Of a stretch of 64,000 nt of DNA, positions 24,743 through 48,420 are shown one piece after another. Both the position numbers and the translations under genes were made by a program. The stretch lies in the NCBI GenBank assembly GCA_963169745.1, contig CAUJCU010000015.1, positions 146,005 through 210,004 on the forward strand, written 5' to 3'. Source of the stretch: Bacteroidota bacterium. Lineage in GTDB: Bacteria > Bacteroidota > Bacteroidia > UBA4408. The notes under the pieces were generated by a model, which saw only the letters and a program-made list of their open reading frames with translations, did no database searches and was not told the DNA's origin. The first letter of the stretch is position 1. Each line of letters starts with the position of its first letter.

Positions 24743-26105
24743 TCAATTAGTTATAATCCCCAATTCTTCATTAGTCAGTCCAAATTTAGTAATTTGTTTT
24801 TGTATTCTTTTTACTATTCCCAACTTTCTTTTCTGGTCTAAAAATAAATAACCTTCCGGGTTGATGTATTGCACATTTTTTACAACCATGTTCCATATAA
24901 TTACTCCAAATTTTCGGGCAGTAGCACTTATTGCAGAAACTCTACCTTTTCTAAAATTTATTCTTTGGAAAAAGTCTCTTAAAGGTGTTGAGTCTTTAAG
25001 ATTTCCTATGGCATTAGCAGCATTTCGAAATGCTATTTTCAGTCTGTTACTCCCTTTAGGCACTTTACTTGAAAGTACTTTGCCACCACTAACTTTGTTG
25101 TTTGGAGCAAGTCTGAGCCAGGAGCAAAAGTGTTTTGCAGTTGGAAACTTTTTTATTCCTTCTATACCTACTTCACTCATTATGGCAAGCACTGTAGCGT
25201 GACTCATGCCTTCTATTGCCAGCAAATCTGTACTTTCAAACATTTGATACGATTTTAGATTAAGATCTATGTCTTTGGGCGTATTTTTATTGATTCGCTT
25301 ATGCGGTTTTGAATCTATGTGGTGCTGTTTTTTATTTTCATCATTGTTAATGATTTCATCGAGCATTAATGCAATCATCTTGTCACATTCCATCATTTTA
25401 TTTTGGATGTGGTCATAAGTATCGAGTTCCTGCTGGAGTGTAAATAAATAATCTGTTCTTCCATTGCTTTGTAAAGCTTTGGCAATTTCCTCTTCACTCT
25501 TGCGACAGTTGGCATGTCGAAGTGCTGCAAGCTTTTGAGGATTTGCTTCTCCATCGCAGATAGCTCTGATAATGCGTAGTCCGGTAAGTCCACAAACATC
25601 ATTGACCACCACATCTAAGCGCAAATTTAAGAGTCTCAAATATTTCTGCATTTTTTTGCTTGTAGAAGCTGCATTGTGCAAGAGATTGGCTCTGTGTCGG
25701 CAAAAGGTTCTGAGTTGCTCTGTTTTTCCGTCTAGGAGGAAACTACTGCTCAAAAGTCCTAAGCTGTGCAACATTTGAATCCATTGGCAATCTTTAATAT
25801 CGGTCTTTTTGCCCTTGATGTTTTTGGTAAACTTTCCATTGCAAAGGATAACATGGAATCCCTTTGAGATTAAAACGGCATAAAGATTTTTGCCAGTAAG
25901 TACCGGTGCTTTCCATGGCTATGGTTCTAATCTTGTGCTCGTGAAGCCAATCGGCCATTTCATAAAGGTCTTGGTTAAATACGCCAAACGCTCTCACATC
26001 ATTTTCATGTTGCCCTACAGCTACCCAGTGGGAGCGACTACCAACATCAATTCCTGCGGCTAAAGGATTGACAATGTCCATTGGTATTTTTTCTTCTTCT
26101 ACCAT
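24743..26105 (-). pseudogene. IS110-family DEDD recombinase/transposase disrupted by a 1-nt frameshift in a homopolymer (two ORFs 25794..26105 and 24743..25774)
   Basis: The N-terminal ORF ends ...ESTGTYWQKSLCRF... The overlapping frame continues ...NLYAVLISKGFHVILCNGKFTKNIKGKKTDIKDCQWIQMLHSLGLL..., which is the conserved IS110 sequence. Removing one A from the A5 run (minus-strand caaaaatc; plus-strand T5 at 25887..25891) restores ESTGTYWQNLYAVLISKGF. Confidence 0.75.
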
Positions 26106-26446: not shown

Positions 26447-27424
26447 CTAACTAAATTGTCGGTGTTCGGTTTTGAATAATTCTTCTTTAGGTAGTGACTT
26501 AAAATACTCATACGTAATTTTTAAACCCTCACTACGGTTAACTTTTGGCTCCCAACCTAGTATTTCTTTGGCTTTTGTAATGTCTGGCCTTCTTTGTTTA
26601 GGATCATCTGCTGGTAAAGGCAGGCTTATTAATTTTTGTTTAGCTCCGGTTAATTTTAATATTTCCTCACCAAATTCCTTAATGGTTATTTCACTTGGAT
26701 TGCCAATATTAACAGGTAATGTATAATCACTTAAAAGCAAACGGTATATCCCTTCAACCAAATCTGAAACGTAACAAAATGAGCGCGTTTGCGAGCCATC
26801 TCCAAACATGGTTAAATCTTCGCCTCTTAAAGCCTGTCCAATAAATGCCGGCAAAACCCTGCCATCATTTAGACGCATACGGGGGCCATATGTGTTAAAT
26901 ATACGAACTATACGGGTTTCAAGATGGTGCACATTTTGGTAGGCCATAGTAATGGCTTCCATAAATCGTTTGGCTTCATCATAACAACCGCGCGGGCCAA
27001 CCGGGTTAACATTCCCCCAATATTCTTCGGGTTGGGGATGTACGGCAGGGTCGCCATAAACTTCTGATGTGGAGGCAACTAAAACTCTTGCTTTTTTTAC
27101 CCTTGCTAAGCCAAGTATATTATGTGTCCCCAATGAGCTTACTTTTAGAGTTTGAATGGGAATCTTTAAATAATCAATGGGGCTGGCAGGGGAAGCAAAA
27201 TGCAAAATATATTTGAGTTCACCCGGCACATGAACATATTTAGAAACATCGTGATGATAAAACTCAAAATGTTCCAGTTTCATTAAATGTTCAATATTTT
27301 TCATATCACCGGTTACTAAGTTGTCCATCCCAATAACATGATATCCGGCCTGTATAAATTTGTCGCACAAATGCGAACCCAAAAAACCGGCTGCTCCGGT
27401 TATCAATACTCTTTCTTTACTCAT
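26447..27424 (-). CDS. UDP-glucuronate decarboxylase (UDP-xylose synthase, UXS; SDR family)
   Basis: [14 protein letters not shown] Rossmann motif, [15 protein letters not shown] catalytic motifs. Near-colinear with eukaryotic/bacterial UXS over 325 aa. Confidence 0.85.
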
Positions 27425-27435
27425 TCTTTAAGGAA

Positions 27436-28845
27436 TTAATTACCCAATAATACTTTTTTAGCTGCATCTAAAATTGCAAATGCTTTTTCTTTGGTCTCGG
27501 CCTCGGCATAGGTTCGTAAAACAGGCTCAGTGCCTGAGGCTCTTATCATCAGCCATTCATGATCTGAGAAAAAGAATTTCCATCCATCTAAATCTTCTAT
27601 TCTTTGAACTTTATAGGCTCCAAATTCTTTGTAAACATTGTTTTTGCAATTAGCTACTATAGTGTTTTTAAGTTCTTCTTTTAAATGAAGGTCGTTTCGC
27701 TCAAACCAAAAAGGACCAGTAATTTCATATACTTCCTGAATAAGTTCTTTTAAAGATTTTCCTGTTTTTGCCATATATTCCCAAATAACCAATCCCATCC
27801 ATATACCATCTCGCTCAGGTATATGTCCTTTTATAGCAATTCCACCTGATTCTTCACCCCCAATCAGCACATCTTCAGTAATCATTAGGCCGCAAATATA
27901 CTTAAAGCCAATCTTTACAACCTCTAAATCAAGATTGTAATGACGGCACATATCTTTAATTTTTACGGTTGTTGAGAAGGCGGTACAAACTTTTCCGCTA
28001 TATTTTTTATACTTTACCAAGTAATGGGTTAAAAGCAAAATGATGTGGTGTGAATCTACAAAGTCGCCATCGCTATTATATAAACCAATTCGGTCGGCAT
28101 CACCATCTGTTACCAAGCCGCAATCAATTTCACCGCTCATTTTTATTAATTCCGAAAACTCGGTTAAATTTTTATGAATAGGTTCTGGTGCTTGACCATC
28201 AAAGGAAGGGTTATAGTCACAATGTAAAAAAGTAATATCTGGAAATAACCTTCTCATTACATTTTGACCAGCTCCAAACATGGCATCATAAGCAAACTCC
28301 ATTTTAGAGTTTCTAATGGCTGCTAAATCAAAATTCTTCTCTACATGCTCTACATACAGCGTTTCAAGGTCAATATATTTTATTTTTCCTTCTTGAACTA
28401 AATCTTCTATGGTTTTAGAACGGATATTAAGGGAGCATGAGTCAGTAATCATGTCCTCAATTTCCTGTACTTTATCGGGCATTAATGGGCCACCATAATT
28501 TCCTTTTATTTTAAACCCATTATAAGCCGGAGGATTATGACTTGCCGTAATAATAATTCCAATATCGGCTCCTTGCTTTACAGTGCCTAAAGAAATCATT
28601 GGGGTAGAAACAAAGCCTTTTGCCAAATAAACCTGAATCCCATAATGAGCCATTACAAAGGCACATGTTTCAGCAAAAAGCTCTCCGGCAAAGCGACAAT
28701 CGTGCCCTAGAACTACGGACTTATTTTTCCCATTTTTTAATATCCACTTTGCTGTAGCTTCAGAAACTCTAGCCACATTGTTTACAGTAAAATCTTCAGC
28801 AATAATGGCCCGCCATCCATCTGTTCCAAATTTAATTTTCGTCAT
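27436..28845 (-). CDS. alpha-D-phosphohexomutase (phosphomannomutase/phosphoglucomutase family)
   Basis: FGTDGWRA N-terminus, active-site TASHNPPAYNGFK, Mg-binding DGDADR; 469 aa. Confidence 0.8.
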   Translation of the reverse strand: MTKIKFGTDGWRAIIAEDFTVNNVARVSEATAKWILKNGKNKSVVLGHDCRFAGELFAETCAFVMAHYGIQVYLAKGFVSTPMISLGTVKQGADIGIIITASHNPPAYNGFKIKGNYGGPLMPDKVQEIEDMITDSCSLNIRSKTIEDLVQEGKIKYIDLETLYVEHVEKNFDLAAIRNSKMEFAYDAMFGAGQNVMRRLFPDITFLHCDYNPSFDGQAPEPIHKNLTEFSELIKMSGEIDCGLVTDGDADRIGLYNSDGDFVDSHHIILLLTHYLVKYKKYSGKVCTAFSTTVKIKDMCRHYNLDLEVVKIGFKYICGLMITEDVLIGGEESGGIAIKGHIPERDGIWMGLVIWEYMAKTGKSLKELIQEVYEITGPFWFERNDLHLKEELKNTIVANCKNNVYKEFGAYKVQRIEDLDGWKFFFSDHEWLMIRASGTEPVLRTYAEAETKEKAFAILDAAKKVLLGN

Positions 28846-29136
28846 AATTAACTATTATTTGAATAAGGATTGCAAAGATACAATTTACAAAGAAATTATT
28901 ATAAATAAAATATAAATTAAATTCTAAATCAAGGCTTTCACAATACTTATTCTAATTTATTTCTAGCCTATCAGATCTATTAATACGATGATAGCAAAGC
29001 GGCTCTTAATAGACTTTAGATAAGATTTAATAAAGCGAATATTGGGTTGTTTTTTCACTTTAGGCAGTGCCCATAATTTTTATGAATCATTATAAAGCTG
29101 TAAAAAAAAAGTTATATTAGCTGCTCAATTTGTTTA

Positions 29137-32100
29137 GTGAAAAACTTAGAACAAAAATCAAAAGATGAATTAATTGAATACATCAAATTGCTGCAAAGCA
29201 AGATTGATAATGTAAATCTATACTTCCCCGGCTTTGGTGTAATCAATAAGTATGAGAAAATCAATACACAAACTATTGATAAGTATCGACTTATGTTTCA
29301 AAAATCTAATGATGCCATTCTGGTTCTTAAAAAAAATATAGTTACCGAATGCAATTTTAAAAGCGAAAGTGTTTTTGGAATACACAAAGAGCATATTATT
29401 GGAAAATTTCTTTATGACTTTACACCCATGATTCAGCCTGATGGGTCAAATAGTAAAGAGAAAATTCACCAGTTTTTAAAAGAGAGTAACTCCAAGCACC
29501 AACAAATTCCATTACAAATTAAGATGTTGAAAAATGGGCTCAATTTGTTTGATGCAGAACTAAATTTTTCTGAATTTACAATTGATGAAGATACCTTTGT
29601 TTATCTCGTAATTAGAGATGTTTCAGAACGGATGGAGTTAAGCCGCCAGCTTAAAGATGAGTATGAAAAACGAATTGAAGAGCAAGATTTAACCCAAAGT
29701 GGAAATTGGGAATTTAATGCCAATAATTTTGATGTTTATTGGTCACCATCAGCCTATGCCATACATGACCTTTCACGCCATATAAAAGCACCCACATTAA
29801 ATGAATATTTTGCTCAATATGTGCACCCCGATGAGCATGATATTTTGTTTCAGGCAATTCAGGAAAGTATTAGAACGGGCCATAATTTTAGTATGGACTA
29901 CAAAATTAGGACCAAAAATCAAAAAATGAAATACCTGCATGTTAAGGGCAAAGCGGTATATCAGTTAAATGGTGAGGTTGATAAAGTTGTTGGTACAGTT
30001 GTAGATATTACAGAAAGAAAATTATTGGAAATTAAACTAAATGATAGTAAAGAGCAATATCAGAATTTGATTGAAAAATTGCCTGAAGGGGTAATTATCT
30101 ACAACCTCCAAAAAATACTGTATGCCAATATTAGTGCTTTTCAAATACCTAAGGTTAACTCTCTAAAAGAAGATTGTTCAGCATATTCAATTTTTGATTT
30201 TATTTTACCTCAATATAAAAATGAAGTTGAAAGAAAAATAAAGTTCCTAATTGAAGGCAAATCATTGGGAACTGTAGAAATGAGAATAAAAAATGCAGAG
30301 GGCAAAATTATAGATATTGAGGTTAGAAGTAACCCTGTGGTTCATAATGGAGAAGTGGCCATACAGGCTATTTTTTCAGAAATAACCTATAGAAAATATG
30401 TGGAACGGAAACTTCGTGAAAGTGAGCGCAGATTGAGTACCTTAATTGGTAATTTACAAGGAATGGTGTATAGGTGCAAAAATGATCCCTCTTGGACTAT
30501 GGAGTTTGTTAGCGATGGCTGTTTAGAGCTTACAGGTTATGATAGAGAAGCCATGTTAAATAATACATCTATACATTATAGCGAATTAATTCTTGATGAA
30601 GATAGGGAATCTGTTTGGCAAAAAGTACAAGAGGCGGTTTCAGAACGAAGAGTATTTACTCTTTCTTATCGTATTAGAACAAAAAATGGAACCATAAAAT
30701 GGCTCCACGAACAGGGTAAAGGTATTTTTGATGATCAAAATAAACTTTTGGCATTGGAGGGCTTTATTACCGATGTGTCAAGAGAAAAATATGCCGAAAT
30801 TGCCTTAAAGGAAAGATATAACGATTATAAGAATATTGTTGACTTTGTACCTGAAGGAATGCTTATACATAAGCACGGAACTATTGTTTTCGCAAATCAG
30901 GTAGCGCTCGGTATTTTTGGCTATAATACCAATGATGAGTTAAAAGGCCTTTCCATGATGAATTTTATTCTTCCGGAATTCCATGAAAAAGTTAAAAAGC
31001 GTGTTGAAGGCTCTTATAAAGGAATGCCTCAAACCTTTACTGAAATTAAGGTTTATACTCGAAATGGGGGGGTATTGGAAGTAGAAACTCGAAGTATTCC
31101 ATTTGTGTATGAAAACGAACAATGTGTTTTAGTTGCAGTTCACGCTATTGATGCTCAGAAACAGCTTGCAAAAGAAACTATAAGAGCAAAATTAGCTGAG
31201 GAAGCAAATGAAGCTTTAAAAAAGGAAATAGAGCAAAAAGTGATTGCTCAAAATGAATTAATTACTTCTCAGAACTATGTAAAGAATATCATTAATAGTT
31301 CGTTGGATATGATTATTGCCTCTGATAGGAACAATAAAGTAACGGAATTCAATAAAGCTGCGCAGATTGTTTATGGCTATAAAGAAAGTGAAATTATTGG
31401 ACAAGAGTTAAGTGTTTTAACATCTGCTCCTGAGGTGCTTTTGAAGGTTCAAGATGTACTGCATAAAGAAGGATACTTCTCAGGAGAGGTACTCAATATC
31501 AGAAAAAATGGGGAATTGTTCGATTGCTTCTTAACGGCTACTTTACTGCTCAACGAAAAAGGAGAGGTAATAGGAAGCATGGGGGTTTCGCGAGATTTAA
31601 CGAAACTAAAAAAAGATCGCGAACGCTTCCATCTAAGTGAAGAAAGATATAAAGCTATTTTCAACCAAGTTTTTGTTGGAATAGCTCGTTTAGACATATC
31701 CGGAAAGTTTACCCAGGTTAACCAAAGATTTTGTACTATATTAGGATATACAGAAGAAGAATTGTTAGAGCTTTATTTTCAAGATAAAAGCGTTGAGCAT
31801 ACTGTTAATGGCTTTGAGAATTTATTGGATTATTTAATTAGGAAAAAAATCAATGACTATACATTCGAGCAAAATTATTATCATAAAGATGGTCATATTG
31901 TAAATACCCAAATAAACATTTCATTAGTATTAAGTGCCAATAACAGCCCTATGTACTTTGTATTGGTTTGTGCTGATATTACTGAAAATAAGCGAAACCA
32001 TGAATTAGCCTTAAAACAAACGGCCAAGCTAAATTCATTAATTGAGAGCAGCAATTATATGGTAATGGCAATTGATAAAAAAGAAAGGCTAACAACATTT

Positions 32101-33417
32101 AATTCCAATACCACTAAATTCATAAAAGAATTTTATGGCATAGAGGCTCTAGTGGGTTTAGAAATGACCAAAGGCTCTTTAGTATCAAGTGTTAAAGCAA
32201 ACCAGTTTTGGATTAAGAGAGTTAAAGAAACATTAAAGGGAAAATCACAGTTTTTTGAATATGTTGCTTTTGATAAAGAAGGGCAACAAAAAAACTTTGA
32301 GTTCTATCTAACCCCTGTTAGAAGTGCAGAGAACATTATTAATGAAGTTGCTATTGTTGGTTACGATATTACTGAAAAGAAAAAAATCGAAGAAAAAATT
32401 ATTAACCAAGGAGCCAAATTAAGTGCAATTTTTGAAAACAGTTCACACCAAATTTATACCATTGACAAACTTTTTAAACTAACATCTTTTAATGAGCTTT
32501 TTGCTAAAACGTTGTATAAAGATTACGGTTTGGAAGCTACACTTGGAATGAATTTAAAAAAAGAGGCTCAAGTCCAAATGCCGGTATCGTATTTTAAGAA
32601 TTTTGTAAAATTACATAAGTCTGCTTTAAAAGGGAATGCCATACGTGTAGAATCAAAAGTGAAGGATACTAAAGAGCGCACTTCATATTATATGTTTTAC
32701 TTAGATCCCATTGTTTTGCCTGATGGAAAGATCAACGAAGTTTCATATATAGCACATGATATCACAGATAAAAAATTAGCCGAAAAGAGTATTGTAGAAT
32801 CTTTAAAAGAGAAAGAAATATTACTTAAAGAAGTACATCATAGAGTTAAAAATAATTTACAAGTAATTTCGAGCATACTTAATTTGCAAAGCGCTTATCA
32901 TAAAGATAAAAATACCGTTAATTTGTTTCGCGAATTACAAAATCGGGTCAGAACCATGAGTTTTATCCATGAAAGCCTCTACCAAACGAGTGACTTTAGT
33001 AACTTGAATTTTAGAGTTTATTTGGAGAATCTCATTGCCAATTTGATGCATAGTTATATGATTGACAATAATCAAATTGAAGTACAATTTGATTGCGATA
33101 ACTTATTTCTAAATTTAGATTTTTCAATTCCATGTGGATTAATAATCAATGAGCTGATTTCAAATGCTCTAAAATATGCATTTAACGATAATCAGAAAGG
33201 GGTGATACGCATATCTGTAAAAAAGTTGAAAAATAAAGTTACGTTTGTTGTAGCCGATAACGGAAAAGGGATTGCTCCTGAAATAGATATAAGAAACACA
33301 GAAACCTTAGGGTTACAATTAGTTGTATCTCTTGTTGACCAAATTTATGGTAAACTTTTTTACAAAGATTTGAATCCCGGAACCAAAATTAAGTTTACCT
33401 TTGAACTAAAAAGCTAA
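29137..33417 (+). CDS. cytoplasmic multi-PAS/PAC sensor histidine kinase with HisKA_2-type phosphoacceptor domain and HATPase_c
   Basis: 1426 aa, no TM segments, at least 7-8 PAS/PAC-like modules (repeated ...TDITERK..., ...ITDVSREK..., ...DITEKKK..., ...DITDKKLAEK... PAC ends). The kinase core has HHRVKNNLQVISSILNLQS (HisKA_2 H-box) and the N/G boxes (NELISNALKYAF, VADNGKGI, ETLGLQLV). Confidence 0.85.
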   Translation: MKNLEQKSKDELIEYIKLLQSKIDNVNLYFPGFGVINKYEKINTQTIDKYRLMFQKSNDAILVLKKNIVTECNFKSESVFGIHKEHIIGKFLYDFTPMIQPDGSNSKEKIHQFLKESNSKHQQIPLQIKMLKNGLNLFDAELNFSEFTIDEDTFVYLVIRDVSERMELSRQLKDEYEKRIEEQDLTQSGNWEFNANNFDVYWSPSAYAIHDLSRHIKAPTLNEYFAQYVHPDEHDILFQAIQESIRTGHNFSMDYKIRTKNQKMKYLHVKGKAVYQLNGEVDKVVGTVVDITERKLLEIKLNDSKEQYQNLIEKLPEGVIIYNLQKILYANISAFQIPKVNSLKEDCSAYSIFDFILPQYKNEVERKIKFLIEGKSLGTVEMRIKNAEGKIIDIEVRSNPVVHNGEVAIQAIFSEITYRKYVERKLRESERRLSTLIGNLQGMVYRCKNDPSWTMEFVSDGCLELTGYDREAMLNNTSIHYSELILDEDRESVWQKVQEAVSERRVFTLSYRIRTKNGTIKWLHEQGKGIFDDQNKLLALEGFITDVSREKYAEIALKERYNDYKNIVDFVPEGMLIHKHGTIVFANQVALGIFGYNTNDELKGLSMMNFILPEFHEKVKKRVEGSYKGMPQTFTEIKVYTRNGGVLEVETRSIPFVYENEQCVLVAVHAIDAQKQLAKETIRAKLAEEANEALKKEIEQKVIAQNELITSQNYVKNIINSSLDMIIASDRNNKVTEFNKAAQIVYGYKESEIIGQELSVLTSAPEVLLKVQDVLHKEGYFSGEVLNIRKNGELFDCFLTATLLLNEKGEVIGSMGVSRDLTKLKKDRERFHLSEERYKAIFNQVFVGIARLDISGKFTQVNQRFCTILGYTEEELLELYFQDKSVEHTVNGFENLLDYLIRKKINDYTFEQNYYHKDGHIVNTQINISLVLSANNSPMYFVLVCADITENKRNHELALKQTAKLNSLIESSNYMVMAIDKKERLTTFNSNTTKFIKEFYGIEALVGLEMTKGSLVSSVKANQFWIKRVKETLKGKSQFFEYVAFDKEGQQKNFEFYLTPVRSAENIINEVAIVGYDITEKKKIEEKIINQGAKLSAIFENSSHQIYTIDKLFKLTSFNELFAKTLYKDYGLEATLGMNLKKEAQVQMPVSYFKNFVKLHKSALKGNAIRVESKVKDTKERTSYYMFYLDPIVLPDGKINEVSYIAHDITDKKLAEKSIVESLKEKEILLKEVHHRVKNNLQVISSILNLQSAYHKDKNTVNLFRELQNRVRTMSFIHESLYQTSDFSNLNFRVYLENLIANLMHSYMIDNNQIEVQFDCDNLFLNLDFSIPCGLIINELISNALKYAFNDNQKGVIRISVKKLKNKVTFVVADNGKGIAPEIDIRNTETLGLQLVVSLVDQIYGKLFYKDLNPGTKIKFTFELKS

Positions 33418-33428
33418 CAATATTCAAA

Positions 33429-34187
33429 ATGAGTAAAACAAATATCTTAATAGTTGAGGACGAAAGCATAGTTGCCAAAGATATTCAACACAGCCTGAAA
33501 AACCTTGGATATAATGTAGTTGGCATTGTGCCAACCGGTGAAGGTGCTGTTGCTACAGCCGTAGAAAAAACGCCAGACTTGGTGCTTATGGACATTATGT
33601 TGAAGGGCACAATGAGCGGCATAGATGCTGCCCAAGAGATAAAGGAAAAGCTTAATATCCCGGTTATATTTTTAACTGCTTATGCCGATCAAATTACTTT
33701 TAATAAAGCTAAAATTACCGAGCCTTATGGGTATCTTATTAAGCCATTTAAAGAAATTGATTTGCATACTTCAATCGAGATGGCTATTTATAAACATGAG
33801 AAAGTTAGTGATGTAGAGAAAGAAAGGGATTTTTTATATTCTCTTGTTGAAAATAAAGAATCGTCTGTAAAAGATAGTATATTTATTAGAGCCAATAGCA
33901 GATTAACAAAAGTAAAAAATAAGGATATTGTTTTTATTGAAGCCCTAAAGGATTACGTAACAGTAAATGCTATTAATACACGCTATACCATTCATAGCAC
34001 AATGAAAGATATATTAGTGAAACTTCCACCTACCGAGTTTATCAGAATTCATCGCTCTTTTATTGTACGTATTGACCGTATTGCAGCTATCGAATACCCA
34101 AATCTAATTTTAGATATAGATAAAAAGGTATTGCCTATAGGTGGCTCATACAGAAACGATTTGCTGAATAAAATTAACTTGATCTAA
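33429..34187 (+). CDS. two-component response regulator, receiver + LytTR DNA-binding domain
   Basis: Receiver motifs (ILIVEDE, DLVLMDIML, phospho-Asp in LMD, FLTA). C-terminal LytTR (FIRIHRSFIV…). 11 bp downstream of the kinase. Confidence 0.85.
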   Translation: MSKTNILIVEDESIVAKDIQHSLKNLGYNVVGIVPTGEGAVATAVEKTPDLVLMDIMLKGTMSGIDAAQEIKEKLNIPVIFLTAYADQITFNKAKITEPYGYLIKPFKEIDLHTSIEMAIYKHEKVSDVEKERDFLYSLVENKESSVKDSIFIRANSRLTKVKNKDIVFIEALKDYVTVNAINTRYTIHSTMKDILVKLPPTEFIRIHRSFIVRIDRIAAIEYPNLILDIDKKVLPIGGSYRNDLLNKINLI

Positions 34188-34191
34188 CTTC

Positions 34192-34758
34192 TTGTTACAC
34201 CTATTTGCTCTCTTCTTTAAACTAAAGGGATGGAAACTAAATGGCTTTATTCCTACGCACATAACCAAATGTGTAATTATAGCAGCACCTCATACAAGTA
34301 ATTGGGATTTTGTTTACTCTTTAGGAGCCCTCAAAATATTGGGTTATAAAGTAAGTTATATGGTAAAAAGTGAACTGTTTTTTTTCCCTTTTTCTATTCT
34401 CCTAAAAAAATCTGGAGCTATTGCTGTAAATAGAAAATCAAGCAATAATGTTGTTGATCAAATGGTAAAACAAATCAAAGATGCTGATTCTATATACTTA
34501 ATGCTTTCGGCCGAAGGAACAAGGAAAAGAGTAGATAAGTGGAAATCTGGTTTCTATTATGTAGCACAAAAGGCACAGGTTCCTGTTTGCACAGGATATT
34601 TAGATTATAAAAAAAAAGAAGCAGGTTTTGGACCCGTAATTTCATTAACCGGTAATGTAACTCATGATATGGGAAAAATCAAGGATTTTTATAGTACAAT
34701 TACACCCCATACCCCTGAAAATTTTAATCAAGATGGAATTATTATTAAAACACAATAA
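34192..34758 (+). CDS. 1-acyl-sn-glycerol-3-phosphate acyltransferase-like (PlsC-family) acyltransferase
   Basis: HxxxxD acyltransferase motif (HTSNWD), AEGTR motif (LSAEGTRKR); 188 aa. Starts 4 bp after the response regulator stop. Confidence 0.65.
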   Translation: MLHLFALFFKLKGWKLNGFIPTHITKCVIIAAPHTSNWDFVYSLGALKILGYKVSYMVKSELFFFPFSILLKKSGAIAVNRKSSNNVVDQMVKQIKDADSIYLMLSAEGTRKRVDKWKSGFYYVAQKAQVPVCTGYLDYKKKEAGFGPVISLTGNVTHDMGKIKDFYSTITPHTPENFNQDGIIIKTQ

Positions 34759-34779: not shown

Positions 34780-36276
34780 TTATTGTGTGCCGCTAATACG
34801 ATTTGCATTTTCTAAAATGACAAATCCATTTTCTTGATAAATTTCTTTTAAAGAGCTAAAGTTGTAGCCCATATAATCAGTTATAGGTTTCTTTTTAGAA
34901 AGTACTATATAAGCAATTTGTCCATTGTTATAGGCTTGTTTATATTTACTGTAATTAAATGGAGATAAGCGAGGTACAATTTCCTTATTTGGAATTACTA
35001 TATGACGAGCTAACATAGCGTTAATGTGGGGGTCAAAACAGAGAAAGTAGTTTCCTAGAGCAAGTTTCTTAGCCATAATTTGAGCTACCTTTTGCTTTTC
35101 ATTATATTCTTTCTTACTGGCTCTTATATTGTAATAGTACTCATGAAAAAAGCCTTGCATTAGGGCATTTCCCATTAGTGATATGATCACTACAGCAATG
35201 AATAATAATGCTGTTTGTGCAATATTCTTTCCCACATTATGAAGTGATATTTTATTCATTTGCTGGGCTGCTAATATAATTACAGCAACAATAAATTCAT
35301 TGTAGTAATTAACCCATGAACCCTCTTTAGCACTTGTAACTAGGGCAAAAACAAATAATCCAATGATATTAAAACTTAAAAATCGAACACGATCAGAACT
35401 TTCTTTTTTAAAATACAAATAAGAAAGAAAAAAGCCGCAAATAAATAGAAGCTGTGATCTAAAATACAAATTTGAGAATACTTCATAAGTACGTATCAAA
35501 GAAAAACCATTGCGAAGCCCTCTTGTGGTATTAACGAAAAAATTTTCACCATAAACACCATAAAAGGTCAAATATACAAAGCCAAATAAAAACGCTTGCA
35601 TAATACAAACTTTCAGAAATAATTTATACTCTCTGTTTAGAAGTATAAAAAAAGGTATGATAATTATAAACTGAAGCCCACTTTGCTTGACAAAAAAAGA
35701 TAGTGTTGCGAATAGCACTCCTAAATACAAGAAAATGTTTTTTTTAGGCAGACTAAAGTAGGCTATAAAACAGTACAGATATAAAACAGAAAAAAGACTG
35801 AATAGGGCATCTGGCCGAACTGCAAAATGAACTTTAGTGAGACTTATAAAATAGATTATACTAGCTATAAATGCTATTTCGTACCTTGTTTTTAGGACAG
35901 AAAACAATAGTTTATAAATAAAAATTACAGTCAGTATGTTGAACAACAGGCTTACAATTCTCCCGGTCAAATAAATCTCGTGTAAATGGTATAATGGTTT
36001 TAATCCCATTAGCTTACAAAGTAATATCGGTAAATAGTATGATAAAGGAGTATATTGTGTAATTGCAAAATTCTCAGCTTCAGGATTACTGTATAATTTC
36101 CCCCCTTCAAGCACATTGCATATACTATACACAACATTGTTTTCAACACCTCCAATATCAGCCGAATAAGAAGTAATGAGACCAATTACTAAAATTACAA
36201 ATAAAAAGGCTATGGCTTTACTATAACCTGTTATCCATTTTAATAATGGGAAGTTCTTATGCTCAGGTACTTTCAA
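34780..36276 (-). CDS. polytopic membrane protein, putative GT-C fold glycosyltransferase (ArnT/PMT/GT39-83-like)
   Basis: 498 aa, ~11-13 predicted TM helices with a loop-rich N-terminal third and a C-terminal soluble tail. Architecture resembles lipid-linked-sugar transferases. No diagnostic motif confirmed by eye. Confidence 0.4.
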   Translation of the reverse strand: MKVPEHKNFPLLKWITGYSKAIAFLFVILVIGLITSYSADIGGVENNVVYSICNVLEGGKLYSNPEAENFAITQYTPLSYYLPILLCKLMGLKPLYHLHEIYLTGRIVSLLFNILTVIFIYKLLFSVLKTRYEIAFIASIIYFISLTKVHFAVRPDALFSLFSVLYLYCFIAYFSLPKKNIFLYLGVLFATLSFFVKQSGLQFIIIIPFFILLNREYKLFLKVCIMQAFLFGFVYLTFYGVYGENFFVNTTRGLRNGFSLIRTYEVFSNLYFRSQLLFICGFFLSYLYFKKESSDRVRFLSFNIIGLFVFALVTSAKEGSWVNYYNEFIVAVIILAAQQMNKISLHNVGKNIAQTALLFIAVVIISLMGNALMQGFFHEYYYNIRASKKEYNEKQKVAQIMAKKLALGNYFLCFDPHINAMLARHIVIPNKEIVPRLSPFNYSKYKQAYNNGQIAYIVLSKKKPITDYMGYNFSSLKEIYQENGFVILENANRISGTQ

Positions 36277-36378: not shown

Positions 36379-36954
36379 TTACATACTATGCTCTATACCT
36401 TGCACCAGTAAATGAATTATTTTAATGTGTATTTCTTGTGCCCTGTCAGAATATTTTGAGTAGGGTGCCCTAATTTCAATATCAGCCATCTCAGAAAGTT
36501 GCCCTCCGTTTTTTCCGGTAAGGGCTATTATTTTCATTTGTTTTTTTCGGGCGCATTGAACAGCTTTAAGTACATTGGCCGAGTTGCCACTAGTACTTAT
36601 AGCTAACAATATATCTCCGCTAACGCCAACTCCATCAATATAACGCGAAAAAACAGAATCAAACCCATAGTCATTGGCTGTACAAGTAATATACGCTGGG
36701 TCAGATATGGCAATAGCCGGCCACGGTTGACGGTCATCTCTGTACCGACCGGTTAGTTCTTCGGCAAAATGCATGGCATCACTCATGCTACCCCCGTTGC
36801 CACAACTAATTATTTTTTTTTGATCTTTTAATGCAGCTACCATTAAATTAACAGCATCCTCTATCAATGAAATGTTTTTAGGTTCATTTATAAAAATATT
36901 TAACAGGGCAGATGCTTCTTGTAGTTCAGTGAGTATCTGTTGTTTGATAGGCAT
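36379..36954 (-). CDS. gmhA: D-sedoheptulose-7-phosphate isomerase (GmhA, SIS domain)
   Basis: SCGNGGSMSDAMHFAEEL matches the GmhA SIS motif (GNGGSxxDAxHFAxEL); 191 aa. Confidence 0.8.
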   Translation of the reverse strand: MPIKQQILTELQEASALLNIFINEPKNISLIEDAVNLMVAALKDQKKIISCGNGGSMSDAMHFAEELTGRYRDDRQPWPAIAISDPAYITCTANDYGFDSVFSRYIDGVGVSGDILLAISTSGNSANVLKAVQCARKKQMKIIALTGKNGGQLSEMADIEIRAPYSKYSDRAQEIHIKIIHLLVQGIEHSM

Positions 36955-44140: not shown

Positions 44141-45247
44141 ATGAAACAAATTTCGTTTGTAATAACAGCTATCTTATTTAGCATTACAACTGCATGTACA
44201 ACCCAAGAAAAACCGGAAAGTCCGGATACTTATAAAGTAGTAAAGCCCATTATAAGGGATACAGTTTACACACATGAATATATTGCTGAAATTCATGCCC
44301 TACAAAACGTTGAATTGAGAAGCAGAATAGCCGGTTTCGTTGAAAAAAATATTGCTGACGAAGGACAATCTGTTAAAGAAGGACAAGTTTTATTTATTAT
44401 CAGTGGTAGGAAGTATCAACAGGAACTTTTAAAAGCAGAAGCTGCAACTAAAAGTGCTATGGCTGAATTAAAATCAGCCGAAATTGAACTTGAAAATACG
44501 CAAAGGTTATTTGATAAGAATATTATATCAAAATCAGAACTAGAATTGTCAAAGGCTAAAATTGAAATGCGAAAAGCATCTGTTATTGAGGCCGAGGCTA
44601 ATGAAGCTCAGGCCGAATTAAATCTTTCGTACACTAAAGTTCAAGCCCCTTTTGCGGGTATAATTAATCGAATTCCAAATAAAACAGGAAGCTTGGTAGA
44701 GGAAGGAACATTACTTACCTCCATTTCTGACAGTAAGGATATGCTTGCTTATTTCAACATTTCGGAGAAAGATTATATTGATTATCTCAAAACAAAAGAT
44801 AAAAAGGAGTCGAAAGAAGTGGCTCTTGTTTTGGTAAATGGTGATGAATACGACCACTTAGGAGCAGTAGAAACAGTTGAAAGCGAGTTCGATAAATCAA
44901 CTGGGAATATTGCATTTAGAGCAAAGTTCCCTAATCCCAAAGGAATCCTTAAACATGGCTCAAGTGGCAAGATTATAGAAAAAAAACATATAAATAAGGC
45001 GCTTATTATTCCTCAAAAGTCAACATTTGAAATTCAAGATAAACTTTATGTTTTTGTTTTAAATAAAAATAATGAATTAGAGCAACGAAATATAATACCT
45101 CAAATGCGATTACCACATGTTTATATTCTTGAATCGGGCTTATCGCCTGAGGAAACAATTTTGTTTGAAGGCATACAACATGTTAGAGCCGGAGATAAAA
45201 TTATACCGGATTTTGTCAGCAATTGGCTTTTAAATATTAACCAATAA
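44141..45247 (+). CDS. RND efflux periplasmic adaptor (membrane fusion protein, HlyD family)
   Basis: Lipoprotein-type signal (ITAILFSITTACTTQ). Coiled-coil hairpin region. Beta-barrel/MP domains; 368 aa. Confidence 0.85.
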   Translation: MKQISFVITAILFSITTACTTQEKPESPDTYKVVKPIIRDTVYTHEYIAEIHALQNVELRSRIAGFVEKNIADEGQSVKEGQVLFIISGRKYQQELLKAEAATKSAMAELKSAEIELENTQRLFDKNIISKSELELSKAKIEMRKASVIEAEANEAQAELNLSYTKVQAPFAGIINRIPNKTGSLVEEGTLLTSISDSKDMLAYFNISEKDYIDYLKTKDKKESKEVALVLVNGDEYDHLGAVETVESEFDKSTGNIAFRAKFPNPKGILKHGSSGKIIEKKHINKALIIPQKSTFEIQDKLYVFVLNKNNELEQRNIIPQMRLPHVYILESGLSPEETILFEGIQHVRAGDKIIPDFVSNWLLNINQ

Positions 45248-45261
45248 TTGGGAGCAAACGT

Positions 45262-48200
45262 ATGACTTCAAAATTTATTCATCGACCCGTACTATCTATT
45301 GTAATTTCAGTTCTAATTACCCTTATAGGTTTAATTTCTCTTTCGCAACTCCCGGTTACTCAATACCCCGATATAGCTCCTCCCGAAGTTAATGTAACTA
45401 CACGCTTTGTTGGTGCTAATGCTGATGCTTGTGTTAAAGCTGTTGTAATGCCTTTGGAAAGAGCCATTAACGGTGTGCCGGGTATGGCTTATATGTCTTC
45501 GGTTTCTGGAAACGATGGAACAAGTGTTATCCAAATAATATTTAAATCTGGTACAAATCCTGAAATTGCTGCCATCAACGTTCAGAACCGAGTTTCGTCT
45601 GCTCTCGATGAGCTCCCTGAAGAAGTTATAAAGCAAGGAGTTATTGTTGAAAAAGTGCAAAACAGCATGTTGCTCTATCTTAATATTTTAACTACCGACT
45701 CAACAATGGACGAAAAATTCCTTTACAATTTTGTTGATATTAATATTCTTAAAGAACTTAAACGCGTTGAAGGAGTGGGTTTTGCCGAACTACTTGGAGC
45801 ACGAGATTATGCCATGAGGGTTTGGCTAAAACCTGATAAGATGACGATGTATAACATCTCTGCAAGCGAAGTTATAGATATTCTTCGTAAACAGAATGTT
45901 GAGGCAGCTCCCGGAAAAATAGGAGAGAGTTCGGGCAAAGATGCACAAACGTTACAATATGTATTAAAATATACGGGAAAATTTAAAACTGAAGAGGCCT
46001 ATGAAAATATTGTAATTAGAAGCAATGAAACTGGTGATATACTTCGGCTGAAAGATATTGCTGAAATTGATTTTGATTCTAAAGATTATAATGTTGTTTC
46101 AAAAGAAAATGGCCGCCCTTCAGCAGCTATATTATTGAAGCAACGCCCGGGGAGTAATGCCAAAGAAGTTATTAAAAATGTGAAAGACAAAATTGCTGAA
46201 ATTAAGCAAGCTTCATTCTTACCCGGAATGGATTATACCATCAGTTATGATATTTCCCAGTTTTTAGATGCCTCTATATACGAAGTTTTGAAAACCTTAA
46301 TTGAAGCCTTTATACTTGTAGCTCTTGTTGTATTCTTGTTTCTTCAAGATACACGTTCCACTATAATTCCCATTCTTGCCGTTCCTGTTTCTCTTATTGG
46401 GACTTTCTTTTTTATGCAGCTCATGGGGTTTTCTCTAAACTTAATTACACTTTTTGCATTAGTGTTGGCAATTGGAATTGTAGTTGATAATGCTATTGTA
46501 GTAGTAGAAGCTGTGCATGCTAAAATGGAACATTCTAAACTAAACGCAAGGAGGGCAACCGAACAGGCCATGAGAGAGATTAGTGGGGCTATTATTGCAA
46601 TTACCCTGGTTATGTCGGCAGTATTCATTCCGGTAGCTTTTTTAGATGGCCCAACAGGTGTTTTTTATCGTCAGTTTTCATTAACAATGGCTGTTGCAAT
46701 TGTGTTGTCGGGGGTAACGGCTTTAACTTTAACACCTGCTCTTTGTGCCTTGTTTTTAAAAAATATGCATACTAAGGAAAAAGGGCGTAAAAATAAGTTG
46801 ACTATCTTCTTTGATAAATTTAATAATTCATATTCAAAAATTTCTGAAAAGTACCAAAAGTTGATTGCTTTAATTGCCAATCGCAGAGTGATAACATTAG
46901 GATTATTATTGGCTTTTAGTATAGGAACTGGTTTAACAAGTAGTTTTGTTCCATCTGGTTTTATCCCCGAAGAAGATCAGGGGGCTATTTATGCCAATAT
47001 TACGGCACCGCCAGGGGCTACCTTAGAACGTACTGAAAAAGCTGTTGATGAGGTGCAGAAAACGGCCTCTTCATTAGAAGCTGTTAACTCTGTTTCTGGA
47101 TTAGCCGGATTTAGTATCCTCTCAGAAGGTAACGGGGCTATTTATGGAATGAATCTTATTAACCTAAAAAACTGGAAAGAACGTAAAGAATCGGATAAAG
47201 AGATTATCCAAATATTAGAGGAAAAAACAAAGTATATTAAAGATGCTAAAATTGAATTTTTTACACCACCGCCAGTGCCTGGATATGGAAATTCAAGTGG
47301 GTTTGAATTGCGCCTCCTCGATAAGTCGGGTGTAGATGACCTTACTAAGCTTCAGAAAGTTGCTGATGATTTTGTAAGGGTTTTAAATAAACGTCCTGAA
47401 ATTAATAATGCTTTTACCACATATAACGCAAACTTTCCACAGTATTTGTTACATATTGACAAAGACAAAGCAGCTCAAAAAGGGATAACATCCGAAAATG
47501 CTATGAGTACGCTGCAAACATTAATTGGAAGTGAATATGCTACTAATTTTATTCGCTTTGGTCAAATGTATAGAGTAATGGTGCAAGCCCTTCCTGAGTA
47601 CCGCAGGCAACCGGAAGACATCTTGAAGCTCTATATAAAGAATGATTATGGAGAGATGATTCCTTTCTCCTCATTTTTAAGAATGGAAAAGGTTTATGGG
47701 GTGGAACAAATTATGCGCTATAATATGTACACAGCCGCCATGATTAATGGTCAACCCGCCCCGGGATATAGCAGCGGACAAGCTATTCAGGCAATAAAAG
47801 AAGCCGCAAAAGAAGCCCTGCCTAAGAGTTATGGTTATGATTGGTCAGGATCATCGCGCGACCAAGCAAATACGGGCAATCAAGCTATTGGTATTTTTGC
47901 AATATGCCTGTTATTTGTTTATTTATTGTTGGCTGCACAATACGAAAGTTTTTTATTGCCATTTGCTGTAATACTTTCTTTACCGGCAGGGATATTTGGC
48001 TCTTTCCTTTTTCTTATGCTGTTAGGACTCGAAAACAACATCTACGCCCAAATTGCTATGATTATGCTCATTGGTATTTTAGGTAAAAATGCTATCCTAA
48101 TTATCGAATTTGCAATTATGAAAAATCAAGGCGGTGCTTCCATATTACAGGCAACTATGTCAGGAGCTGCTGAGCGGCTAAGGCCTATCTTAATGACTTC

Positions 48201-48420
48201 TTTTGCATTTGTTGCAGGACTTATTCCCTTAATGATTGCAAATGGGGCCGGAGAAATAGGAAATAATACCATTGGCGCAGCTGCTGTTGGAGGAATGCTT
48301 CTTGGAACCATTTTTGGAGTTGTTATCATTCCGGGCTTGTATTTTATTTTTGCTTCAATTGCTGAAAAGTTAAATAAAAGAAAACGCAAAAAATTAAAAC
48401 CTTACTCAGAAACAATTTAA
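45262..48420 (+). CDS. RND efflux transporter permease, AcrB/HAE1 family
   Basis: 1052 aa, 12 TM helices with two large periplasmic loops. Classic start MTSKFIHRPVLSIVISVLITLIGLISL. Confidence 0.9.
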   Translation: MTSKFIHRPVLSIVISVLITLIGLISLSQLPVTQYPDIAPPEVNVTTRFVGANADACVKAVVMPLERAINGVPGMAYMSSVSGNDGTSVIQIIFKSGTNPEIAAINVQNRVSSALDELPEEVIKQGVIVEKVQNSMLLYLNILTTDSTMDEKFLYNFVDINILKELKRVEGVGFAELLGARDYAMRVWLKPDKMTMYNISASEVIDILRKQNVEAAPGKIGESSGKDAQTLQYVLKYTGKFKTEEAYENIVIRSNETGDILRLKDIAEIDFDSKDYNVVSKENGRPSAAILLKQRPGSNAKEVIKNVKDKIAEIKQASFLPGMDYTISYDISQFLDASIYEVLKTLIEAFILVALVVFLFLQDTRSTIIPILAVPVSLIGTFFFMQLMGFSLNLITLFALVLAIGIVVDNAIVVVEAVHAKMEHSKLNARRATEQAMREISGAIIAITLVMSAVFIPVAFLDGPTGVFYRQFSLTMAVAIVLSGVTALTLTPALCALFLKNMHTKEKGRKNKLTIFFDKFNNSYSKISEKYQKLIALIANRRVITLGLLLAFSIGTGLTSSFVPSGFIPEEDQGAIYANITAPPGATLERTEKAVDEVQKTASSLEAVNSVSGLAGFSILSEGNGAIYGMNLINLKNWKERKESDKEIIQILEEKTKYIKDAKIEFFTPPPVPGYGNSSGFELRLLDKSGVDDLTKLQKVADDFVRVLNKRPEINNAFTTYNANFPQYLLHIDKDKAAQKGITSENAMSTLQTLIGSEYATNFIRFGQMYRVMVQALPEYRRQPEDILKLYIKNDYGEMIPFSSFLRMEKVYGVEQIMRYNMYTAAMINGQPAPGYSSGQAIQAIKEAAKEALPKSYGYDWSGSSRDQANTGNQAIGIFAICLLFVYLLLAAQYESFLLPFAVILSLPAGIFGSFLFLMLLGLENNIYAQIAMIMLIGILGKNAILIIEFAIMKNQGGASILQATMSGAAERLRPILMTSFAFVAGLIPLMIANGAGEIGNNTIGAAAVGGMLLGTIFGVVIIPGLYFIFASIAEKLNKRKRKKLKPYSETI

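Follow-up and report, generated by a model that had tools for sequence, protein, structure and literature searches.

A soluble multi-PAS HisKA_2 kinase and its neighbouring LytTR regulator as a probable cognate two-component system of Bacteroidota

Introduction

Among the response regulators that bind DNA through a LytTR domain, one group pairs with LytS/BtsS-type kinases of family PF06580. Other characterised members are paired with AgrC/ComD-type kinases (HATPase_c_5; PMC8895600). Histidine kinases of the HWE/HisKA2 type, on the other side, are often soluble, and their outputs frequently lack a DNA-binding domain (PMC10359499); from this description, a HisKA_2 kinase paired with a LytTR regulator is atypical for the best-studied, alphaproteobacterial members. 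Such a pair is the subject of this work. It lies in a 64-kb stretch of the Bacteroidota contig CAUJCU010000015.1, which we call the window and whose positions we use throughout. The original prediction for this stretch, made from the DNA letters alone, had held that HisKA_2 kinases usually act through single-domain or PhyR-type regulators, in agreement with the literature on the alphaproteobacterial cases.

The first gene of the locus encodes a soluble sensor histidine kinase (29137–33417, + strand; 1426 amino acids, GTG start) composed of an N-terminal helix, nine PAS modules, a HisKA_2 dimerization and histidine phosphotransfer (DHp) domain and a HATPase_c catalytic (CA) domain. It is followed after 11 nt by the gene of a receiver-LytTR (REC-LytTR) response regulator (33429–34187, + strand; 252 amino acids) and, after another 4 nt, by that of a small protein of the lysophospholipid acyltransferase family (34192–34758, + strand; 188 amino acids, TTG start). 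The open reading frame (ORF) map reproduces the gene positions and both spacings as first predicted, and independent assemblies contain the same three genes with identical calls. We propose, at a probability of roughly 0.8, that kinase and regulator are cognate partners in a cytoplasmic two-component system, one of a family conserved in Bacteroidota, with putative phosphotransfer to a DNA-binding output.

Results

Strong comparative evidence for the pair comes from its conservation. A search with the regulator returned 7415 scored matches, the best 120 of which are all REC-LytTR proteins of about 250 residues, and at least 425 relatives are found in contigs of species-level Bacteroidota genomes (one genome per species). 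Gene neighbourhoods were compared for the best 80 of these, mostly from uncultured Bacteroidia, Flavobacteriales and Cryomorphaceae, with the cultured Cryomorpha ignava QSSC 1-22 (L032) among them; across this sample the regulator is 67–85% identical. A HisKA_2 kinase ORF lies directly before the regulator gene, in the same orientation, in 78 of the 80 genomes; the two remaining loci are truncated where their contigs stop. For almost every one of the 78 genomes the gap between the two genes lies between −17 and +44 nt, and in one (L054) it is +200 nt. Besides the family itself, no LytTR or HisKA_2 gene was found in the orthologous loci examined, and the 64-kb window holds no further receiver, LytTR or HisKA_2 gene. 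The original prediction implied that the pairing is rare; it is instead widespread, since many uncultured Bacteroidota of freshwater and soil have it, and automated pipelines name its regulator correctly (‘LytTR family response regulator’).

Conservation extends to the surfaces by which the two proteins would meet. In complexes of kinases with their regulators, DHp helix α1 and receiver helix α1 are the mutual contact surfaces. Residue invariance was determined over 73 kinase sequences and 81 regulator orthologues: DHp α1 (E1225–Q1251) is at least 97% invariant, and receiver α1 (I14–L23) almost invariant. Because adjacency in 78 of 80 genomes goes together with nearly unchanging interface helices, the kinase and the REC-LytTR regulator are very probably cognate as judged from sequence, which upholds the partnership originally suggested for the downstream gene.

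The kinase might instead belong to a branched network, as alphaproteobacterial HWE/HisKA2 stress kinases do. The neighbouring LytTR regulator would then be only one of several partners, and the kinase would act mainly on other, unlinked receivers or serve for the most part as a phosphatase. PMC10359499 and PMC5964349 indeed describe HWE/HisKA2 kinases whose outputs are diverse and in many cases unlinked, and the receiver class concerned is very abundant: a search with the receiver alone against 1.84 billion representatives gives 111,380 at E ≤ 1e-3. Against such a network stand the near-universal adjacency with short gaps or overlaps, the invariance of the interface helices on both proteins and the lack of another receiver in the window, so that we consider it unlikely and retain the cognate pair as the preferred explanation.

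The DHp domain of the kinase (32830–33057, + strand; residues 1232–1307) matches HisKA_2 (PF07568) in Pfam with 96.8 bits (cutoff 22.3) and carries the invariant H box HHRVKNNLQ at residues 1234–1242, in which H1235 is the predicted phospho-histidine. The CA domain (33139–33408, + strand; residues 1335–1424) scores 40.7 bits for HATPase_c in Pfam and has its N box NELISNALKY at 1338, its G1 box DNGKG at 1374 and its G2 box TLGLQL at 1390. H1235 and the N, G1 and G2 boxes are invariant across the kinase orthologues, among which the DHp domain is 70% and the CA domain 51% identical. Membership in the HWE family proper was rejected in favour of HisKA_2: HWE_HK (PF07536) reaches 28.6 bits over profile positions 1–53 only, compared with 96.8 bits for HisKA_2, and residues 1221–1426 contain no Trp, a residue of the Trp/Glu signature of HWE kinases. 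The hydropathy of the kinase peaks at 1.49 (19-residue Kyte-Doolittle mean), which is under the usual threshold of 1.6 and predicts no membrane helix. As such, Pfam, hydropathy and H box together bear out a soluble multi-PAS kinase of the HisKA_2 type devoid of membrane segments.

The modules of the sensor array were delimited by cutting the kinase at the repeating PAC-end motif D[IV][TS]E+K and scanning each piece alone. Eight of the nine segments have a Pfam PAS match, from multiple Pfam PAS families, and TIGR00229 likewise covers eight stretches of the protein. The segment of residues 1090–1220, scanned alone, had no Pfam match; it is 34% identical to the module before it (E 4e-21 to 5e-20). 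Among 37 DHp-proximal modules, one from the window and 36 from related genomes, 33 match PAS_4 and 32 match PAS_9, and a profile of these modules matches the PAS domain adjoining the kinase core in Brucella LOV-HK (6ph4). A family-specific hidden Markov model (HMM) recognises all nine: modules 1–5, the variable N-terminal part (29269–31185, + strand; residues 45–173, 187–302, 303–427, 428–558 and 559–683); module 6, which follows a helical linker of about 26 residues (31264–31632, + strand; residues 710–832); module 7 (31633–32013, + strand; residues 833–959); and modules 8 and 9 (32014–32796, + strand; residues 960–1089 and 1090–1220). Since eight segments match alone and the ninth through its paralogue, its orthologues and the family HMM, we count nine PAS modules on these sequence criteria. 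The original figure of about eight was right as to a multi-PAS array and too low by one, and per-domain HMM annotation gave multiple PAS domains, HisKA_2, HATPase_c, Response_reg and LytTR.

The array shows traces of its own history. Modules 2 and 4 (E 4e-13) and modules 3 and 5 (E 7e-16) are paralogous, which points to duplication of a two-module unit, while the paralogy of 8 and 9 points to a tandem duplication; both of the latter correspond to the DHp-proximal module present in nearly all orthologues. Over 72 full-length orthologues, PAS1 is present in 14, PAS2 in 31, PAS6 in 66 (median identity 47%) and the DHp-proximal PAS in 71. The orthologous kinases range from 476 to 2181 amino acids with 2 to 14 PAS modules; one orthologue of 337 amino acids is probably a split ORF. 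Given the rarity of PAS1 and PAS2 and the spread in module number, the sensor array is evolutionarily plastic on an invariant transmitter, and lineages differ in which N-terminal modules they have gained, lost or duplicated. The conserved core, by the same comparison, is the DHp-proximal PAS, the DHp and CA domains and the regulator.

It is plausible that the array integrates several cues, as originally suggested, yet its N-terminal modules are evolutionarily dispensable. A blue-light sensor of the LOV type was rejected. The motif NCRFL occurs nowhere in the kinase, as had been stated beforehand for the LOV signature NCRFLQ; the stretch of PAS6 at the aligned position reads GQELSVLTS, and the LOV cysteine is lacking. 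A PDB search with the whole kinase brought up kinase cores and, beyond these, just two PAS domains from structural genomics.

Of the family's sensor modules, module 6 is conserved best, and one could suppose that it binds a flavin and serves as a cytoplasmic redox sensor, the variable N-terminal modules being accessory inputs or spacers. Its nearest solved relatives in the PDB are 3lyx, MmoS (3ewk) and the first PAS domain of NifL (2gj3, E 3e-7), and it also matches the NCBIfam models of NifL, YtvA and DosP. NifL PAS1 and MmoS are FAD-binding sensors, so that the nearest solved relatives as well as the conservation of the module speak for this idea. Other points count against it: the position aligned to the Trp of the NifL/MmoS motif (PWSG/IWQG) is F or Y in PAS6 here and in the orthologues, a LOV cysteine is missing, the best match 3lyx is annotated merely as a sensory box/GGDEF domain protein and is silent on cofactor, and similarity between PAS sequences is in any case no predictor of cofactor. 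We regard a flavin in PAS6 as a lead of low probability.

The regulator comprises a Response_reg domain (residues 6–116, 79 bits in Pfam) and a LytTR domain (PF04397; residues 158–249, 64.4 bits against a cutoff of 22.6). The receiver has the acidic pocket residues E10 and D11 together with D55, T83 and K105, all of them invariant. Its AlphaFold2 (AF2) model (pLDDT 83.7) shows a receiver, a long α5 helix and an all-β C-terminal domain with ten strands over residues 150–236 (pLDDT 84–93). In a Foldseek comparison the model aligns over its full length, about 265 columns, to ComE (4cbv), and its receiver with α5 superimposes on EutV, PdtaR and PhyR at 1.4–3.3 Å, with EutV and PdtaR at 1.4–2.1 Å and 34% identity. 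The predicted α5/linker helix spans residues 109–133 (33753–33827) and carries the invariant residues K131, E132, R133 and D134. In EutV and PdtaR, extended α5 helices form coiled coils; the modelled helix resembles them and may be a dimerisation element.

The receiver itself points to a particular class. Its best NCBIfam match is the PhyR model NF006623 at 107.6 bits, whereas the whole protein scores 64 bits for LytR and 50 bits for BtsR. The protein is nevertheless not a PhyR: only the receiver part of NF006623 is matched (positions 137–256), the score stays below the cutoff of 240, and the architecture is REC-LytTR. By sequence, the top PDB matches of the receiver are 3cg0, PdtaR (1s8n), 2n9u and several PhyR entries. 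The 150 best matches of the receiver-only search are mostly multi-receiver proteins with additive scores, so that the single-receiver matches are the informative few; ten of the 150 were domain-scanned, all seven single-receiver ones included. The non-orthologues with extra domains among these ten are REC-PAS, REC-PAS-GAF-HisKA_2 and REC-PAS-DUF835 proteins of 59–64% identity, and two more non-orthologues consist of a receiver only. We read the regulator as a LytTR output fused to a PhyR/PdtaR/EutV-like receiver, from the class that normally works with signalling proteins of the PAS/HisKA_2 type.

The related genomes contain one more gene next to the pair. In 63 of the 80, the gene directly 5' of the kinase, on the same strand and mostly at a distance of −4 to +25 nt, encodes a protein of about 525 amino acids with MORN_2 repeats (94–148 bits) and an N-terminus that looks, by eye, like a signal peptide (for example L014:1151–2677, L023:1178–2731 and L032:2038–3630, with 60 other loci). 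From these 63 genomes, the ancestral operon was probably MORN-kinase-regulator. The MORN gene is absent from this position in the clade of the window and from the whole 64-kb window, and we assume that this clade has lost or moved it.

Inspection by eye of 36 regions 5' of the MORN gene showed two promoter-like blocks, CCCCTAAATTGTTTAAYTTTG and TGTTATTAACTTTGGA, each with a Bacteroidetes-type −7 box at its end; they were seen in L019, L022, L027, L030, L034, L036, L037 and L048, and in L028, L032, L045, L049 and L071. A second TGTTNWWTAA-like copy stands about 11 nt upstream in L028, L032, L041 and L043, again as judged by eye, and these repeats may be a candidate operator of the regulator. 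In the window, the region 5' of the kinase (28846–29136, + strand, from the ORF map) is common to a divergent phosphoglucomutase gene and presumably holds the operon promoter; in an alignment with the nearest relatives its final ~45 nt (an A-run, GTTAYWTTAGC and ATTT) are kept in L008 and L009.

The third ORF matches Pfam Acyltransferase (PF01553) at 43 bits, with an HX4D motif at residues 34–39 and EGTR at 108, and reaches 48.1 bits on the PlsC model TIGR00530, whose cutoff is 102.95. By these features it is classed as a member of the LPLAT superfamily, a housekeeping-type lipid enzyme, and the 4-nt gap suggests that it is probably co-transcribed with the regulator in the window genome. The family is widespread in Bacteroidota at 50–57% identity. 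The window's own clade (L001–L003 and L008–L013; regulators 83–85% identical, gaps of 8–9 nt in these relatives) is the only one in which an acyltransferase gene stands 3' of the regulator, and the other ~70 orthologous loci lack it there; its orthologues in two distant lineages that were sampled directly follow polA, with no two-component system nearby (L091:5001–5564 and L093:5001–5576, 52–55% identical). The gene seems to join the 3' end of whatever operon lies before it, and on this synteny we rejected it as a component of the system. That it is the regulated output, as the original prediction had offered, and that the system hence tunes membrane lipid acylation is very improbable, even with the short gaps, the intact HX4D and EGTR motifs and the envelope-related neighbours described below, because the link is confined to one clade and because a gene further down the regulator's own operon is expressed along with it without necessarily being its target.

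The flanks of the operon (34780–36276, 26447–28845 and 36379–36954, all − strand) encode envelope and sugar-metabolism functions: a protein of 498 amino acids that weakly matches PMT_2, PGM/PMM, an NAD-dependent epimerase and a SIS-domain protein. L008 and L010 share these surroundings, which the wider family lacks. An IS110-family transposase, split in two ORFs (24743–26105, − strand), precedes the kinase operon by 3 kb; one ORF has 343 amino acids with Transposase_20, the other 103 amino acids with a sub-threshold DEDD_Tnp_IS110 match, and the sequence could come from an interrupted element or mark a local rearrangement. An RND efflux pair at 44141–48420 (+ strand), consisting of an HlyD-type membrane-fusion protein and a 1052-amino-acid AcrB-family transporter, is unrelated to the kinase operon. 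Rfam and tRNA scans revealed no RNA genes in the window.

Discussion

The domains, catalytic residues, gene order, interface and fold described above suggest the following mechanism for the proposed two-component system. The nine-PAS array would receive intracellular signals and control autophosphorylation of H1235 in the HisKA_2 domain, from where the phosphoryl group would pass to D55 of the regulator. The phosphorylated regulator could then dimerise through its receiver and the long α5 helix, allowing the LytTR domain to bind DNA and to alter transcription. With a PhyR/PdtaR/EutV-like receiver fused to LytTR, the HisKA_2 kinase class would thereby gain a direct transcriptional output.

Several points weigh against this interpretation. 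Neither the whole-kinase PDB search nor the comparison of PAS6 with the NifL/MmoS residues led to a cofactor for any PAS module, and no operator or direct repeats were found upstream of the operon in the window (28846–29140), where alignment with the relatives yields a short promoter-proximal block only. Furthermore, the receiver-class argument is built on a ranking by similarity rather than on phylogeny, the synteny is compatible with additional partners or a mainly phosphatase role, and full-text literature searches found no paper on the HisKA_2-LytTR pair or its family.

One may go further and see in the presumably secreted MORN protein, the soluble multi-PAS HisKA_2 kinase and the REC-LytTR regulator the core of a Flavobacteriales-wide global pathway that responds to cytoplasmic state or stress. 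In Bacteroidota it would correspond to the HWE/HisKA2-PhyR general stress response of Alphaproteobacteria, with the PhyR-class receiver rewired to a LytTR DNA-binding output instead of the partner-switching sigma mimic; the PAS array, with its 2–14 modules, would act as a lineage-specific signal integrator. We think this distinctly unlikely, and it is the narrower proposal of a cognate pair that we put forward.

If the pairing is true biochemically, HisKA_2 kinases, which are known mainly from alphaproteobacterial stress signalling by way of single-domain or PhyR regulators, would drive transcription directly via a LytTR regulator, and LytTR regulators would work outside the context of quorum sensing by membrane kinases. 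Current concepts of two-component signalling would not change, as all parts come from known families: the system is ordinary in mechanism and belongs to an uncharacterised but widespread family. The most useful by-products of the analysis are the conserved MORN-kinase-regulator operon and a natural set of orthologous kinases in which 2 to 14 PAS modules are joined to an invariant transmitter and regulator; this set could serve to study the gain, loss and wiring of PAS arrays.

Compared with known systems, the kinase is closest to the soluble PAS/LOV kinases of the alphaproteobacterial HWE/HisKA_2 group (EL346, Brucella LOV-HK, PhyK and LovK), with which it shares a cytoplasmic location, PAS sensing and the H box HRVKNNLQ. 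EL346 (4r39/4r3a) and Brucella LOV-HK (6ph4) are the closest solved relatives of its core, and its DHp-proximal PAS resembles the one beside the LOV-HK core. Those kinases, however, have one or two PAS domains, whereas the present one has nine, without a LOV motif and without the HWE Trp; moreover, the partner in this Bacteroidota locus is encoded next to the kinase and has a LytTR DNA-binding domain instead of being a single-domain regulator or PhyR. The regulator shares the order of REC and C-terminal LytTR with ComE, AgrA, LytR, BtsR and AlgR, and its predicted fold matches that of ComE, but the partner kinases of these regulators are membrane proteins, in contrast to the soluble HisKA_2 kinase found here. 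Its receiver is closest in sequence and fold to those of PhyR, PdtaR and EutV, with a long α5 as in the latter two; PhyR, however, acts through a sigma-like anti-anti-sigma domain and PdtaR and EutV through RNA-binding ANTAR domains, while the output here is LytTR. Finally, the third ORF has PF01553, HX4D and EGTR in common with the PlsC/LPLAT acyltransferases and differs from them by its length of only 188 amino acids and its score below the TIGR00530 cutoff.

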